Shown here: one piece after another, positions 20,945-28,205 of the stretch
Layout: each line of letters starts with the position of its first letter
Position numbering within the stretch: the stretch's first letter is position 1
From: Candidatus Rifleibacteriota bacterium
GTDB taxonomy: Bacteria > Muiribacteriota > Ozemobacteria > Ozemobacterales > Ozemobacteraceae
Assembly: GCA_051747585.1 (NCBI GenBank)
Contig: JBNJGH010000016.1
Span: 11,971-46,014 of the forward strand
Length of the DNA stretch: 34,044 nt
Direction of reading: 5' to 3'
Program-made: the position numbers and the translations under genes
The notes under the pieces: model-generated
What the model saw: only the letters and a program-made list of their open reading frames with translations
The model's database searches: none
Told to the model about the DNA's origin: nothing

Positions 20945-21553
20945 TTAATTTTTTTTGCATTCTCCAGTCTGACATTGCATTTTTTTCTTTTTCTTTTTTT
21001 GCATTTTTTCCATCATCTTCTTCATTTTTTTCTTTTTTTTCTTTTTCATTTTTTTCATCTTCATTGTTTTCATCTTTATGAGCTTTTGCAATGAATCTTT
21101 AATCGTATTGGTCATTGCCAGACTCATGTGCTTAGCCAACTGCCCGAAAAAACCCGGATTAAGTTTTACGATCTCAAAATTGCCGCCCTGCTTAATAATA
21201 ATTAAGGCAACAGGTTTAAGCATGAATCCGGAACCAAGACCAAATCTCTGTTCTTCTTTTTCGTCTTTTTTGTTAGTTTTCGAAGTTCCCTTTTCATTTT
21301 CCTTATCTTCAGACTTTGCCCCAAAACCGAACCCCGCTACTTTACAAACAACCGGAATTATTACATATTCCCCTGCACTGACAGGCCGGCCCAGGCTCTC
21401 TGATGAAGAAAAATTATCGCTGAAAAGCTTCGACAAACCGACAAGAGTCGATGCGGCCATCATTTTATCAGCATCTTCCTCGGCATAACAAGACGGAAAA
21501 GCCGTGAAGACCATTCCAAGTATCATCAACAAAAGAATCCTTCTCTTAAACAT
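20945..21553 (-). CDS. YtfJ/GerW-like protein with a signal peptide and a Lys/Met-rich tail
   Basis: G.PV..GE..IIPV.KV..FGFG...G.G.G..LKPVALIII resembles Spore_YtfJ; SD GAGGAGGT. Confidence 0.72.
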   Translation of the reverse strand: MFKRRILLLMILGMVFTAFPSCYAEEDADKMMAASTLVGLSKLFSDNFSSSESLGRPVSAGEYVIIPVVCKVAGFGFGAKSEDKENEKGTSKTNKKDEKEEQRFGLGSGFMLKPVALIIIKQGGNFEIVKLNPGFFGQLAKHMSLAMTNTIKDSLQKLIKMKTMKMKKMKKKKKKKMKKMMEKMQKKKKKKMQCQTGECKKN

Positions 21554-21683: not shown

Positions 21684-21837
21684 GTTTCAAGACATTTAGA
21701 TTGCTTCGTCGCTAAGCTCCTCGCAATGACAAATTTGGAGCTGTCATTGCGAGGAGTTCTGCAAAGCAGAGCGACGAAGCAATCTTTGATATGCTAAAAT
21801 TTAGGACATAACAAAAAATACAAAAATGTCTTGAAAC
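21684..21837. repeat. MITE-like element: 14-bp terminal inverted repeats around a long palindrome
   Basis: GTTTCAAGACATTT (21684-21697) and AAATGTCTTGAAAC (21824-21837). Inner stems AGATTGCTTCGTCGCT/AGCGACGAAGCAATCT and CTCCTCGCAATGACA/TGTCATTGCGAGGAG. Confidence 0.75.
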
Positions 21838-21937: not shown

Positions 21938-24900
21938 TTGCAGGTTTTAAAAAATAGAAATTCTTTTTTATACGGTTTTTCTCTAGCTTTTTTTGGCATA
22001 CTGCTGCTGCTTCCTCTTATTTTCTTCAGACAGGTATTAGAAAAGCTGGTAAATATCGAAGAAAGACAGCTGAAGGCAATGGTTCAAGAAAAGCTTTTGC
22101 TTGAAACAGAAAGCTTTCAAAACGATATAAACCCAAGAACCTTTGTCGAAAACAGTCTTAGAAAATTAAATTCAGAATTTGGCCTAAGCTTTCCCCAGAG
22201 AAGCCACAGGGTATTTCGCTACCCGAGTGGTTATGATCCTGCTCTGGTTGATTCGAACTTTATTCCGGCCGCCAGAAATTATTTAAGAAAAAATTATGGC
22301 ATCGACCCGAATATTGTAATAGCTGCAGACTGCGATTTACAAAACTCTTACTCTTTTTTCAAACCTAATGCTTTAAGACACTCAAACGATGACGCTGTCA
22401 AAAAAAATGAATTAGTTAAAAGGGCTGTCTTTTCTGTAGCCTCCAACGATACTTATGTAAAAAATATTCTTCCCTTTACGGAATCATTAGAAAAACGCAA
22501 AAAAGAATTTATTAAGATAAGGGGAACAGACAACACTCATATTCTTTTCAGTTTTAATTTCAGATCTCTAGTTTCTTATTTTGCAAATCCCCCGCTCTAC
22601 ACGGATGACTGCATAAAATATTTCAACAAAACTTCGGGCAATCAAAGGTGTTATGCCTATGGTTTCAAAGCAGTTAAGTATTTTCCTGAAAACAAAGAAG
22701 GAATTTACGGGCTCTATTTTATGGTAATTCCCGGCTCTAGCTTTGAACCACAAATAGTTTTAAAAAAAGCTCTAAATCAATCATCAAATGACTGCCAACG
22801 AAAAATAGTCAAGCTCAATATTCAGCAACCTCATTTTCATGAAACAGATGAGGGAATTTATTATCTTGCTAATTTCACCTCGGGCTTTTTTCAAATTATT
22901 CAAGACTGTGGCTTGAAAGATCCCGAGAAAGAAAAATTCTTCAGGAAATATTTTAGAACCCACGCCCTTGCCAGCTTTGCCAGCAAGAAAGAACTGGTTT
23001 CGCCCAATCGAAAATTTTTACCTGTAATTGATTTTTTAATCAAGCTTCTTATTTTATTTGTTTTTGCTACTTTCGTTTACACTTTCATTCATAATAGATT
23101 TACAAATTTCAATTTGAATTGGAAACTAAAAACCACGATTGCTCTTATAGTTTTTATACCCATACTGGGGATTTTGTTTGCAGTCAGACTAGTCAATACA
23201 GCAAACAAGCGCTACCAGATAATAAAAATTCGTAACCACATGCATCGTAAAATAAGCAAATTTGAGCTGTTGGATTTTGAGAACGATATTAGAACCGTAA
23301 CCAGGTTTTTGCACAAGAAGTCTATCGATGCCAGATTTTTTAATCAGCCGAAGGTAAACCGGGAAAAACTGACAAAAGCGCATGAAGCTTTTAAAAATAA
23401 AGATCTTGGAGTTTCAGGCCTTTTTTTTCATAAAAACGGCAAAGGCATTTCATTTAACAATGAATTAGAAATTACTGGCAATGAAAGGAAAAATGAAAAT
23501 TTTGCTTTACTCAGGATACTAAGTGATCTGGGCATAGCCGATTTCAGCAGCCCCAGGATTCGCAGACTCGATAAAGAACAATATTTTTTGGGCTCCTATG
23601 CAGACCCGCTATTTGAAGTTCTTGCAACCCCAGAAAATCTGGCTGCGGAAAGCTCAATTATTAAAGATGTCTATGCTATTTCAACACTAAAAAAATGCCT
23701 TTTACAATTGATAGCTTCTCCAGCCGATCCCGAGAACCCCTACGGCATAGTTTACAATGAGGTCAACGGCGCAAAATTCGGAAACTGGTATTTAGACCTT
23801 TTAAACAAAAATCCCCGGATAAAATCGGTAGAAACTATTTCTAACGGCATTATTGAATACGCAGCTTTTCTAAGAACTAATGATAGTCTTAGAAAAGAAA
23901 AATGGCCGGCGCGCGGTTCAGTGCAACATCTTCGCAAAATAGCCAAGAACGCGGTTAAACAAAGGAATTCAGGAAGCATCACCTCCCCAAATGATAACAG
24001 TATGATTTTAACCAGCTGGTCTTTTAAAGAAACCAGTCCGATAGTTATTGTTGCCAGAGCAGTTTTAACCGGAAAAACCGGCAAAAGCTTAATTGTAGAT
24101 ATCATACCCTGGCTGCTTTTATTATATGGCTTGCTAGCAATTGTTATCATTTCCAACTGGCTTTCAAATTATTTTCTCAATCCGGTGGCATTACTGTTAA
24201 AGGGAGTAAATAAGATCTCTAACGGCCAGTATGGCTTTAATCTTTCTCTCAAAAGTGGCGATGAATTTTCTCATCTGGCTGATTCTTTTAATAAAATGAC
24301 CGGCGGCCTTTTGCAAAGAGAAAAAATGAAACGCTTTGTTTCCGACAAGCTTTTCGAAAGTATTCAGGATTCCCCAGAGAAAATTGAATCCAGAGTTGTT
24401 GATATAACAGTTTTGAGTTCTGATATCAGAGACTTCACCATAATTACCGAGCAGTATAATGCCGAACAAGTCGTAGCAATGCTTAACGACTATCTGACCC
24501 TGATGGAAAGATCTATAAAGGCAAGTGGCGGCGCTATTGAAAAAATTATCGGCGATGCAATAATTGCATCATTTTCAGTCGCTGATTCTGAACAAAGGGC
24601 ATTGATTAGCTGCAAAGCAGCGCTTGAAATGCGAAAAAAGCTTACTGAATTCAATCAGAGACGATTAGAAAACAATCTTTTTACAATTGAAAATGGCATA
24701 GGTATTTCAGATGGAAAAGTTATATTTGGTTTTGCCGGCCAAAAATCCGGGAGACAAGAATTTATTATTTCTGGCGATCCTTTAAAACGTGCAGAAAATC
24801 TTGAAAGTCTCAGCAAAGAAGGAAAACACAGCAAAATAATTATTGATGAAACAATTCATCGAAAAGTAAACCACAAATTTAATTTAATCCCAATCGAAAC

Positions 24901-24943
24901 CGGCGATAAATTTAAAGCATGGGAAATAACAACTGATGCCTGA
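21938..24943 (+). CDS. Membrane sensor-HAMP-class III cyclase domain protein, C1-like (metal-binding half)
   Basis: About four TM segments; HAMP (P...L..GV..IS.G...DEFSHLADSFNKM); SDIRDFT; EKIIGDA; GIGI; GDPLKRAENLE lacks the catalytic Asn and Arg. Confidence 0.9.
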   Translation: MQVLKNRNSFLYGFSLAFFGILLLLPLIFFRQVLEKLVNIEERQLKAMVQEKLLLETESFQNDINPRTFVENSLRKLNSEFGLSFPQRSHRVFRYPSGYDPALVDSNFIPAARNYLRKNYGIDPNIVIAADCDLQNSYSFFKPNALRHSNDDAVKKNELVKRAVFSVASNDTYVKNILPFTESLEKRKKEFIKIRGTDNTHILFSFNFRSLVSYFANPPLYTDDCIKYFNKTSGNQRCYAYGFKAVKYFPENKEGIYGLYFMVIPGSSFEPQIVLKKALNQSSNDCQRKIVKLNIQQPHFHETDEGIYYLANFTSGFFQIIQDCGLKDPEKEKFFRKYFRTHALASFASKKELVSPNRKFLPVIDFLIKLLILFVFATFVYTFIHNRFTNFNLNWKLKTTIALIVFIPILGILFAVRLVNTANKRYQIIKIRNHMHRKISKFELLDFENDIRTVTRFLHKKSIDARFFNQPKVNREKLTKAHEAFKNKDLGVSGLFFHKNGKGISFNNELEITGNERKNENFALLRILSDLGIADFSSPRIRRLDKEQYFLGSYADPLFEVLATPENLAAESSIIKDVYAISTLKKCLLQLIASPADPENPYGIVYNEVNGAKFGNWYLDLLNKNPRIKSVETISNGIIEYAAFLRTNDSLRKEKWPARGSVQHLRKIAKNAVKQRNSGSITSPNDNSMILTSWSFKETSPIVIVARAVLTGKTGKSLIVDIIPWLLLLYGLLAIVIISNWLSNYFLNPVALLLKGVNKISNGQYGFNLSLKSGDEFSHLADSFNKMTGGLLQREKMKRFVSDKLFESIQDSPEKIESRVVDITVLSSDIRDFTIITEQYNAEQVVAMLNDYLTLMERSIKASGGAIEKIIGDAIIASFSVADSEQRALISCKAALEMRKKLTEFNQRRLENNLFTIENGIGISDGKVIFGFAGQKSGRQEFIISGDPLKRAENLESLSKEGKHSKIIIDETIHRKVNHKFNLIPIETGDKFKAWEITTDA

Positions 24944-27875
24944 ATCAAAATTTATTTTAAAAGTTACCAGTAGACCGAACACTGCGAAGCTTGTGTTGGC
25001 ATGGCTTCTGCTGGTAATATTGCCTGCTTTTTTATTCATTAATCTTTTTAATTTTGTATTGCAAGAAGGCGAGCAAGATCTCTTTAACAGCGCCAGAACC
25101 TCTCTATATGAGGAAATGGAAGACTTTAAAAGCAAACTGCTTATACGCAGGTATCTTGAAATTAACCTTGCACAGCTTTCCAGGAAACTTGGCTTTAATA
25201 AAAGCAATAACAAAAAAATTCAATACTATAAAAGCCTTGATGCTACAAAGTTGCGAAAAATTATAAAAAAAGAACTTGGAATTAATGTTTTTGCAGCATT
25301 TTACCACGGCCCCGACACTGCCAAAACAAGCCATTCATTAACAGCCAGGCAGGCAAAAAAGTTTATGATCTCAAGAACCATGCTGGAACATTTATTTAAA
25401 TTTCTCAATAAACAAAACAAAAAAACCAATTGCCTGCCCCAGTCGAATAAAAAGCCGATTAACCCTGATCTAGAAAAGAAACTAAGAACAAAAAGCCTTA
25501 CCTATCTCAAGAATTTATTAAAAACTACCGGCAAGTTAGAACTTGAGAAAAATGAAGTAAAAACCTTTCTTTCGGGCAATCCTGATTTAAAAAGAATTTT
25601 TATTTACTATGCCTCTGCCGAAAAGACAACAAAAGTGGCTAAAGCCAACCTCGGCGGTTTCATCATCATTTTCAGACAAAAAGATATTCCGGTAAAAATA
25701 CTTACCAATTTTGCGACAAACGATCAAAACCAAATAGCTTTTAATAGAAGAATTATTACCAGAAATCTAAAAAGTATTAAAAATCTCAACAAATTCTCAA
25801 ATAGTCTAAGTCAACTAAATGAAACTAATTCAGAATTGACATTGAACAGTGTTTTTCCTTCAGAATTACTTGTCAGAATAATATGCGGAGATACTTATTA
25901 TCCTTTCAATCTTGATAAAACTATTAAAAATTTCCCGTTACTGCAGATTAAAGTCAATAAATCCGAATTGGTTCATCCACTGAGAAAATATTACCAACCG
26001 GTAAAGTTTACTCTGCTCATTTTAGTAATGCTGGTTACACTTTTGTTTCTGCGCCTTTTCTTTTTTGGTTTCTTTCTTCCCTTTAAAATCAGAACCAAAA
26101 TTCTTTCTGCCGTTTTTGCCGCTTCGATTCTTCCCTTTCTGGCTTTATGGACAATGGCTGCCTACCATGAAGCTTTTAGTGAAAAATTCAGACAATTCGA
26201 AATGTCAGGCTATCTTAATCAACAACTGGCACAATTCAATATTTCTACCAATTCATACAGGGCAGCTCTTGAAAACAAGTTCATTAAATTAAACGAAACG
26301 CTTGGTAACCTTAAAACCTATGAACTTATACCTGCAATTAAGCACTGGATGAAAGACAAACCAATAACCCATATTGCTACCAGAATAAAAAGAAATGATG
26401 GGGTTCTGGCCAGGGAACCGGGAACCAGAATGGAATCCTTTGAGCTTGATTTAAAAGACCTGCTATTCACAACATTAGAAAATGCTTTTAGAAAATATGA
26501 TGATGAAGGAAAACTTAATGATGGCTCTATTGGATTGTTTAAAATCAAGGTAAAAGGTATCGGGAATTTCCTTTCAGACATAAGCTTACTTCATAATTCG
26601 GGCTTTTATAACATCGACACTCTTTATTCTTTAATTCCTGTGTTTAAAGGCAACAGGGATGACTCAACAGTCGAATCCGCTTTTCTATTAAAACTTTCAA
26701 ACAAGCTGATACTTAAAGACTTTTTCAGAAAAAACAAAAAATTCATAACTCAGGGTTTCTATAATGGTTTTAAAATTCAAAAATGCTATATACCCATTTC
26801 TCGACCCGGCAGGCTCCCGCCGCAAACAGATTATATCTGCAGTAAAAATTTTCCTTTTCAACTAAGCAAAGATAAAATCGAAAAAACTTTACAGAACAAA
26901 TCGACAAATTTTACTATTATCAACCATAATGGGCATTTAAAGCTGATTAAAACAGCATTTATGCCCAGCCTGAAAACTATTGTCGTTTTAGTAGCAACTC
27001 AGATAACAGGACAAAATTTTGCATTGATGCCTTCATTTAAAGCTTTGTCTTTATACCTTCTGGCCATTATTATTGCCGCCATACTTCTTATGGGTAGAAT
27101 TTTTGTAGATCCGGTTAATCTATTTGAGAGGTCAACAGAGAAACTTGCTTGCGCAGATTTCAATCATAGATTAAGCCTGTCGAGTAAGGATGAGTTTGCC
27201 AGTCTTGCTCAATCCTTCAATGTGATGATCAGAGGGCTGAATGAAAAAGAAAAATTATCTCAATTTCTATCAGAAGATGTAATCGAAGAAATTTCGGATA
27301 ATAAGGAAACAATTCTCGAGCCCGGAGGTGAACGTGGTCAGGCAAGTATTGTTTACTGCTCATTACCTCACTTGAACTTGATTTCAGATGAACGAAATTA
27401 TGAAAAAGTCATTGCTGAAATGAGTAATTTAATAAATACTGCAGACCAGATTTCGCGCCGCCATAACGGGGTAATAGACAAAACAATAGAAAACTCGTTG
27501 ATGCTTGTTTTCAGGCAATCTGACGCCGGTGATTCTCATGTTTTAGCTGCCTGCAAGGCAACCATGGAAATAAAAAATGAATTTGCAAGCCAGAATATCA
27601 GGTTCAATGCTGCAATAGCTTCGGGTTCCGTTATTTCAGGTAAGATTGGCTCTAAGGATGGCCGCCTTGATTTTACGGTTATCGGAAATCCGGTAAATCT
27701 TGCTGCACGTCTTAAATCTCAGGCAGAAATATTTTTATCGAGCGGGATATTGATTTGTCCGCAAACTATTAGAAAGCTTAAAGGTAAAGCAAAGTTAAAA
27801 TTTATCGATCGTGTAACTATCAAGGGGCGCGGCCGAACTTTCCCGCTTTATGAACTTATAAAGCTCAGAGATTAA
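24936..27875 (+). CDS. Membrane sensor-HAMP-class III cyclase domain protein, C2-like (substrate/transition-state half)
   Basis: Same architecture; HAMP DEFASLAQSFNVM; YCSLPHL and DKTIENS lack both Asp; DFTVIGNPVNLAARL is intact; 8-bp overlap with the upstream gene. Confidence 0.9.
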   Translation: MPESKFILKVTSRPNTAKLVLAWLLLVILPAFLFINLFNFVLQEGEQDLFNSARTSLYEEMEDFKSKLLIRRYLEINLAQLSRKLGFNKSNNKKIQYYKSLDATKLRKIIKKELGINVFAAFYHGPDTAKTSHSLTARQAKKFMISRTMLEHLFKFLNKQNKKTNCLPQSNKKPINPDLEKKLRTKSLTYLKNLLKTTGKLELEKNEVKTFLSGNPDLKRIFIYYASAEKTTKVAKANLGGFIIIFRQKDIPVKILTNFATNDQNQIAFNRRIITRNLKSIKNLNKFSNSLSQLNETNSELTLNSVFPSELLVRIICGDTYYPFNLDKTIKNFPLLQIKVNKSELVHPLRKYYQPVKFTLLILVMLVTLLFLRLFFFGFFLPFKIRTKILSAVFAASILPFLALWTMAAYHEAFSEKFRQFEMSGYLNQQLAQFNISTNSYRAALENKFIKLNETLGNLKTYELIPAIKHWMKDKPITHIATRIKRNDGVLAREPGTRMESFELDLKDLLFTTLENAFRKYDDEGKLNDGSIGLFKIKVKGIGNFLSDISLLHNSGFYNIDTLYSLIPVFKGNRDDSTVESAFLLKLSNKLILKDFFRKNKKFITQGFYNGFKIQKCYIPISRPGRLPPQTDYICSKNFPFQLSKDKIEKTLQNKSTNFTIINHNGHLKLIKTAFMPSLKTIVVLVATQITGQNFALMPSFKALSLYLLAIIIAAILLMGRIFVDPVNLFERSTEKLACADFNHRLSLSSKDEFASLAQSFNVMIRGLNEKEKLSQFLSEDVIEEISDNKETILEPGGERGQASIVYCSLPHLNLISDERNYEKVIAEMSNLINTADQISRRHNGVIDKTIENSLMLVFRQSDAGDSHVLAACKATMEIKNEFASQNIRFNAAIASGSVISGKIGSKDGRLDFTVIGNPVNLAARLKSQAEIFLSSGILICPQTIRKLKGKAKLKFIDRVTIKGRGRTFPLYELIKLRD

Positions 27876-27927
27876 ATCTGATTTAACCCTGTTTGGTTTA
27901 ATCTATGGCAAAATCAATATAAGACCC

Positions 27928-28075
27928 GTCATGCCTGCGCAAGCAGGCATCCAGAGTTAGAGCAGAAATACAGATTGTTTAAATTCTCTTTTCAAGCACT
28001 CAGCTTATATTTTTAAATAAAATAAACGATGATTATTCTGGATTCCTGATCCGGTTAGAACCGGTCAGGAATGAC
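27928..28075. repeat. Pair of inverted palindromic repeats (GTCAT...ATCCAG type, dRS3/RPE-like)
   Basis: GTCATGCCTGC-GCAA-GCAGGCATCCAGA and TCTGGATTCCTGA...TCAGGAATGAC, in opposite orientation, about 80 bp apart. Confidence 0.7.
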
Positions 28076-28205
28076 ATCTAAAAATTATCTTCGTTAATCT
28101 GCATTTTTTCTTTGAAGCTCTGAGGCTTGTTGTGAGGCATACTTTCCCGGCTGATAATAATTCCAGAACGTTGGCCAAAAATTGCTGGTCAAATCTGAGG
28201 GGGTC

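Follow-up and report, generated by a model that had tools for sequence, protein, structure and literature searches.

Can two neighbouring bacterial genes, neither of which encodes a complete catalytic site, together specify a single adenylate cyclase? The question is raised by two overlapping genes, here called A and B, in a stretch of 34,044 nucleotides from Candidatus Rifleibacteriota contig JBNJGH010000016.1 (the window, to whose numbering coordinates without a locus name refer). In class III cyclases it is established which subunit supplies which catalytic residues and what the KG loop does, and class IIIb is defined by Lys plus Thr/Ser as the base-specifying residues. The known bacterial HAMP cyclases and receptors include those of mycobacteria. 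A and B are most likely the subunits of a class IIIb adenylate cyclase receptor with one active site, predicted to lie in the membrane and to work only as a heterodimer; the pair is real and conserved and, to judge from its sequence, probably functional. Bacterial class III adenylate cyclases are described as homodimers, a fused dimeric form being unknown in bacteria according to an excerpt of PMC9552081, and homodimerization is presented as a fundamental difference from the eukaryotic enzymes (PMC4821796, excerpt). The roles of the base and transition-state residues are laid out in PMC4215837 (excerpt). The features of the pair are as follows.

21938..24943, plus strand: gene A, 1001 aa, TTG start; TM1, outer domain 1, TM2-TM3, outer domain 2, TM4, HAMP and a class III cyclase of C1 type (metal half)
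22043..23008, plus strand: A outer domain 1 (aa 36-357), candidate divergent Cache/PDC-like fold, from a structure model and structural matches
23207..24079, plus strand: A outer domain 2 (aa 424-714), probably Cache-like, from secondary structure and Atlas leads
24158..24310, plus strand: A HAMP domain (aa 741-791), PF00672 27.4 bits, cut-off 25
24398..24871, plus strand: A cyclase domain, PF00211 55 bits
24422, 24542 and 24554, plus strand: residues retained in the A cyclase, D829, K869 and D873
24764, 24785 and 24797, plus strand: residues lost from the A cyclase, Thr to I943, Asn to K950 and Arg to N954; KG loop absent
24936..24943, plus strand: 8-bp overlap of A and B, ATGCCTGA, holding the B start and the A stop
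24936..27875, plus strand: gene B, 979 aa, architecture as in A; cyclase of C2 type (base and transition-state half)
27087..27242, plus strand: B HAMP domain (aa 718-769), PF00672 33.4 bits
27336..27836, plus strand: B cyclase domain, PF00211 37.2 bits
27360 and 27492, plus strand: residues lost from the B cyclase, Asp to S809 and Asp to N853
27480, 27675, 27696, 27708 and 27822, plus strand: residues retained in the B cyclase, K849, T914, N921, R925 and K963

The two products are built alike. In both, four hydrophobic segments in a 1+2+1 arrangement frame two outer domains, each about 300 aa long, and a HAMP domain and a PF00211 match above the curated cut-off of 21.9 bits follow. Profiles of A and B align over 927 columns with probability 100, and this end-to-end alignment of the two families identifies them as full-length paralogues; identity over their HAMP-cyclase parts is 26%. 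One codon separates the TTG start of A from an in-frame stop upstream, and this start is required, since TM1 (residues 8-35) would otherwise be lost. The 8-bp overlap points to translational coupling of the genes.

At full length, the closest relatives with named records belong to Candidatus Riflebacteria, Ozemobacteraceae and Rifleibacterium. Orthologous pairs in many relatives have a SpoU gene upstream and ABC transporter genes downstream, a neighbourhood that suggests an old locus and is silent on function. An opposite-strand ORF of about 330-350 aa lies right after B in many of these loci (L093:6884-7888, L181:9333-10334 and others); in the window it is missing, and a dispersed repeat occupies the place instead (27921-28080), REP-like by eye and with nine matches of at least 120 nt in its own genome, self included. 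This repeat is unlike the 154-bp MITE-like element upstream of A (21684-21837), which has perfect 14-nt terminal inverted repeats, inner palindromes and 44 BLAST matches of at least 120 nt in the same genome, self included. A YtfJ-like gene on the minus strand (20945-21553) is divergent from A and encodes a C-terminal tail very rich in Lys and Met. Promoter-like sites (23 against 20.1 expected) and terminator-like sites (5 against 5.1) occur at chance level.

The division of the catalytic site is clear from the residues themselves. Neither chain carries all six catalytic residues: A is without Thr, Asn and Arg, and B is without both Asp. Retention is reciprocal, A keeping both metal Asp together with the phosphate-binding loop (D-I-R-x-F-T) and B keeping the base and transition-state residues, among them the class IIIb base pair K849 and T914; the aligned CyaB and PAC chains also show Thr. 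Alignment to CyaB (3R5G), Cya2 (2W01), OaPAC and bPAC confirms the canonical register of these positions. The A cyclase model superimposes on CyaB 3R5G with Z 24.4 and rmsd 1.9 over 182 aligned residues, and the B cyclase matches CyaB with E 5e-10 in a comparison of sequence only. The original prediction had described the two genes, the 8-bp overlap and the residues D829, D873, I943, K950 and N954 of A and S809, N853, K849, T914, N921 and R925 of B, all of which are present as it placed them. Its description of the residues as 'exactly complementary' goes too far for single residues, because A also retains the substrate Lys, K869. It had missed the C-terminal xKG[K/R] loop, which is present in B (IKGR, with K963) and absent from A.

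A mechanism can be proposed on this basis. (i) The coupled genes would yield A and B in similar amounts. (ii) The subunits would pair through HAMP, the coiled coil that follows it and the cyclase cores. (iii) Outside ligands would bind the Cache-like domains, potentially four different ones per dimer. (iv) The ligand signal would pass through the mixed HAMP. (v) The single working site, composed of D829 and D873 from A with K849, T914, N921, R925 and K963 from B, would convert ATP to cAMP. (vi) The other pocket of the A:B dimer would be decayed, and A:A and B:B homodimers would be inactive. Ten cNMP-binding matches are found in the same genome, and these proteins are possible readers of the cAMP.

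Whether such a dimer would make cAMP at all is the point on which one alternative turns. The heterodimer could form and yield no cAMP, acting as an ATP-binding or nucleotide-sensing receptor, or could make another product, as a cGMP or cyclic pyrimidine synthase. A bacterial cyclase-like protein in the PDB is titled 'ATP-binding protein' (6YII) and presumably lacks cyclase activity. Against this, the composite site has the residues D, D, K, T, N, R and K, a set also found in full-site cyclases from these genomes, and CyaB and CyaC are the closest solved matches. PMC4215837 (excerpt) bears on both sides: some guanylate cyclases have Thr at the second base position, but Lys at the first is a mark of adenylate cyclases. 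The alternative is improbable, and the adenylate cyclase assignment is preferred.

Residue conservation across the family separates the two subunits by face. Domains were classed solely by the two Asp and by Asn/Arg, so that the remaining positions were not used for sorting. Among 102 B domains, Lys is present in all 102, Thr/Ser in 101 and the loop Lys/Arg in all 102; the first Asp is retained in one. Among 112 A domains, Thr occurs in 40 and the loop Lys/Arg in three. In 98 pairs, mean conservation of the metal and phosphate face is 0.84 in A versus 0.37 in B, and that of the base and transition-state face 0.86 in B versus 0.48 in A, with the faces chosen by us from motifs and the modelled interface. 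Each subunit thus conserves one face, which indicates that one composite site has been held and the other let go. Some residues of the nominally lost halves do persist and count against an obligate heterodimer: the A domains have Lys (70) or Arg (33) at the substrate position in 103 of 112 cases, and the second Asp is kept in 68 of 102 B domains. Four deltaproteobacterial cyclases with Arg replaced by His (L112, L128, L131 and L146) have no typed partner in the DNA examined, and they too count against it.

In a second alternative, a homodimer of one subunit would be the active enzyme and would rely on non-canonical residues, as A might with K950 replacing Arg; the other subunit would be a regulatory pseudo-enzyme. 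A does retain D, D and K, and K950 is basic and lies within the modelled interface; yet position 950 is Lys in only 22 of 112 A domains and position 954 Arg in eight. The absence of a 'conserved' residue need not abolish activity in class III enzymes: Ma1120 functions without Asn (PMC4215837, excerpt), a precedent that by analogy may count against the heterodimer. The near-invariance of the catalytic half of B is something a mere regulator would not need, and the conservation of only one face per subunit is likewise at odds with an active homodimer, which we regard as improbable.

The second pocket of the heterodimer had been proposed in the original prediction to be allosteric, on the model of the degenerate mammalian site, which binds the activator forskolin. 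Among 20 orthologous A and 20 orthologous B domains, K869 of A is present in 20 of 20, Glu852 of B in 18 of 20 and Asp853 of B in 17 of 20, and the Thr position of A is a varying hydrophobic residue; B of the window has Asn853. For such residues, salt bridges that stabilize the structure of a dead pocket would be a better explanation than binding of a specific ligand. This side is poorly conserved, and B of the window departs there from its own orthologues, so that an allosteric role appears doubtful.

A census placed the pair of the window among its relatives. The unbiased count comes from G014, a near-complete relative in two contigs, of which all 58 PF00211 matches were taken: 21 domains are full-site, 18 of A type, 18 of B type and one neither. 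The half-site domains thus make up 36 of the 58, and every one of them adjoins the opposite type, in 15 two-gene pairs and three fusions. Half-site domains adjoin one another 24 times in G014, and each time one is A and the other B; some of the pairs stand in arrays such as BABABA. Were 18 A and 18 B domains shuffled at random, 24 of 24 would arise with a probability of 4.5e-7, a value that exaggerates the significance, since pairs are copied as units. The full set of loci counted yields 118 adjacencies, comprising 71 A-B, 37 B-A, eight fused, one full-A, one A-A and no B-B. The expectation that homologous tandem pairs would share the complementary pattern is thus borne out in 116 of 118 neighbouring cyclase pairs. 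This total omits L001-L030 (short flanks), L099 and one ORF of L188 (duplicates), and 67 of the 71 loci L100-L170, which are outgroup cyclases and nearly all full-site (L124, L127, L139 and L150 were retained); loci outside G014 and the genome of the window (G000) were chosen as matches to A or B, and related loci are not independent. Half-site domains with no typed neighbour number 19 of 226. Two of these lie outside the family; the remaining 17 show truncation at an edge, of the gene itself or of its neighbour, or a stop that interrupts the partner, as in the B gene of L043. The 108 two-gene A/B junctions overlap in 86 cases and lie within 20 nt in 97, distances that use the start codon nearest the stop and so favour small values.

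The genome of the window contains 33 PF00211 matches. They include several A/B pairs, some with A first and some with B first, and contigs C113 and C212 carry fused A-B ORFs. The split is a family trait and is not confined to the pair in the window. A scan of genome contigs with A alone gave no confirmed relative. Two copies of a B-A junction, 93% identical, lie at contig ends of this genome (C7:1-1564 and C69:1-1564) and represent either a recent duplication of a pair or strain variants. An orthologous sCache-HAMP-cyclase-HEAT repeat protein (G000 C75:6171-8432 and L057:3488-5773) is without both catalytic halves and is likely to be a pseudo-cyclase. That tandem paralogues decayed independently and became complementary by chance is scarcely credible: the family is large and fast-evolving and includes broken copies such as the stop-split L043 gene, but the census contradicts random loss, the retained residues are near-invariant, the orthologous pair keeps its SpoU/ABC surroundings in many genomes, and fusions always join A to B.

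Physical association of the subunits was examined by modelling. The complex of the HAMP-cyclase parts of A and B scores 0.74, against 0.00 for the best of three controls. Among solved complexes 116 of 157 attain that mark, and among mismatched pairs 2 of 215; this calibration is rough, our own alignments having been used. At least 96% of contacts agree between runs, partner pLDDT is at least 81, and the modelled interface spans HAMP, the coiled coil and both cyclase faces. The score may derive from likeness to solved cyclase dimers, and it would speak to contact between A and B, not to a preference over homodimers. Over 98 pairs, covariation of A columns with B columns did not clearly pick out the interface: of the top 20 column pairs 1 lay in the modelled interface (1.8 expected), of the top 50 there were 5 (4.6 expected), and of the top 100 there were 14 (9.1 expected). 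The charges of the coiled coil show no pattern clearly separating A from B.

The outer domains are putative sensors. Cyclase-type domains dominate fold searches with whole models and make them uninformative on the outer domains, so outer domain 1 of A was folded alone (aa 32-358; pLDDT 91.5). Its best structural matches are mostly Cache/PDC sensors, the top one with Z 7.7, below the Z 8 caution line of the fold-search tool, and rmsd 3.1 over 98 aligned residues; 'divergent Cache-like' is accordingly a lead from modelling. For outer domain 2 of A there are Atlas leads only, to CSS-motif (0.91) and to dCache and CHASE4 clusters (0.86-0.88). Sensors of the Cache/PDC class have a long N-terminal helix and PAS-like modules; a Pfam scan of the outer domains of A and B gave no Cache match.

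The evolutionary history of the family was approached with a tree of 94 domains (of 331 in a FastTree run) from which the diagnostic columns had been removed; support values are SH-aLRT from a quick search with no bootstrap. The 4-TM family groups together (93), with 30 A domains in one clade (94) and 28 B domains in another (84, moderate); six full-site members are unresolved beside them. One subgroup is mixed in the FastTree run. The A and B clades have mirrored subgroups. For the 18 G014 pairs, distances among the A members track those among the B members (Mantel r 0.69, reached in none of 10000 permutations), which is what duplication of whole pairs would produce. The A domains of fusions fall within the two-gene A domains and their B domains within the two-gene B domains, and this nesting inside two-gene clades indicates that the split preceded fusion. 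Eight fused ORFs from five sources are all A then B, as are the ten two-domain entries among 38 long database matches, one of which is apparently the C113 fusion of the window's genome itself; these numbers argue against assembly slips. L070:1169-19262 in G014 carries three tandem fused A-B genes, and both these and G000 C113:4009-9990 encode about 2000 aa with eight main TM segments. The C113 fusion groups in the tree with one of the L070 fusions.

Pairs are also found beyond this group. A second family, f2 (G019, G025), has them. G021 contains two soluble GAF-cyclase pairs in the order B then A (L175:2913-7291 and L176:1396-5829) with the same complementary loss, and G024 has a 2-TM dCache_1 cyclase pair, also with complementary loss (L179:4794-9144). 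The GAF and dCache_1 pairs fall apart from the 4-TM family in the tree. A single clade for all A-type domains in the phylum is rejected (AU p 0.00018, the test having been chosen after the trees were seen). The placement of these pairs and the rejection of one A clade indicate that the half-site design arose more than once in the phylum.

The trees suggest the following course of events. (i) One old duplication of a full-site gene would have been followed by reciprocal loss. (ii) The A/B pair would then have been duplicated repeatedly as a unit. (iii) Fusion in some lines would later have given TM-C1-TM-C2 chains. It is likely that Riflebacteria hold full-site gene, two-gene half-site pair and fused C1-C2 chain within one family, and so every stage between a homodimer and an animal-style cyclase, with the split before fusion. 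Fused forms nested among already split pairs are the reverse of the order in PMC9552081 (excerpt), which proposes for mammalian adenylate cyclases that fusion precedes divergence.

A family with full-site, split and fused receptor versions side by side offers a direct test of the homodimer-to-heterodimer question. Gene-by-gene annotation would mark more than half of the cyclase domains of such a genome as dead, although its half-site domains are, on their sequences, probably its main cAMP receptors. If the reading holds, A subunits could also combine with B subunits of other pairs (18 by 18 in G014) to give a combinatorial receptor set, and each dimer could integrate up to four different outside signals at one active site. 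The full reading, in which the evolutionary series, four-signal integration, 18-by-18 subunit mixing and a regulator-binding second pocket all hold, is unlikely.

The heterodimer principle itself is already known from animals and mutants; what is added here is a genome-wide census, a mirror tree with the split before fusion, and separate origins. No paper on naturally occurring bacterial half-site cyclases encoded by two genes, or on Riflebacteria cyclases, came up in a literature search, and the supplements of cyclase surveys could list such pairs. Among known proteins, 6YII, a sAC-like Pseudomonas protein, is a 473-residue bacterial cyclase-like chain with a fold match like sAC (ADCY10, 4CLF), and we take it to be a C1-C2 tandem. 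Unlike A and B it is soluble and a single chain without a membrane sensor, titled as noted above, yet it limits any claim that bacteria have no fused form. A term search of the excerpt of PMC2447327 gave no match for such cyclases.

The bacterial class IIIb HAMP cyclases CyaB (3R5G) and CyaC (1WC1) have the same catalytic fold, Lys plus Thr, and HAMP before the cyclase. Cyclases of this type are described as homodimers with two sites (PMC9552081, PMC4821796, excerpts), whereas A and B each lack a full site. Soluble guanylate cyclase alpha/beta and chytrid NeoR/RGC are also two-gene heterodimeric class III cyclases, and the RGC genes are clustered; both are eukaryotic guanylate cyclases, and the RGC subunits, unlike A and B, retain all catalytic residues (PMC8815786, excerpt). 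The same logic underlies engineered Rv1625c, in which the D300A and R376A mutants, each inactive, complement each other to give an active dimer, also in membrane-anchored chimeras (PMC4821796, excerpt). Those are laboratory mutants of a class IIIa homodimer, whereas A and B are a natural gene pair. The closest parallel in labour division is the mammalian membrane enzymes AC1-9, class IIIa pseudo-heterodimers with the order TM1-C1-TM2-C2 (1CS4, 1AB8, 6R3Q), in which A corresponds to C1 and B to C2. They too have one active and one degenerate site, an arrangement predicted here from sequence, and the fused A-B relatives share their order, anchor-C1-anchor-C2. The mammalian enzymes differ in being single chains with 6-TM anchors and the class IIIa residues Lys plus Asp; the Riflebacteria pair consists of two genes, and its products have a core of class IIIb type (Thr) and 4-TM anchors with HAMP and putative Cache-like domains. 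In sequence and fold A and B are nearer to bacterial CyaB, CyaC and Cya2, and the likeness to the mammalian cyclases is therefore one of convergence and not of ancestry.
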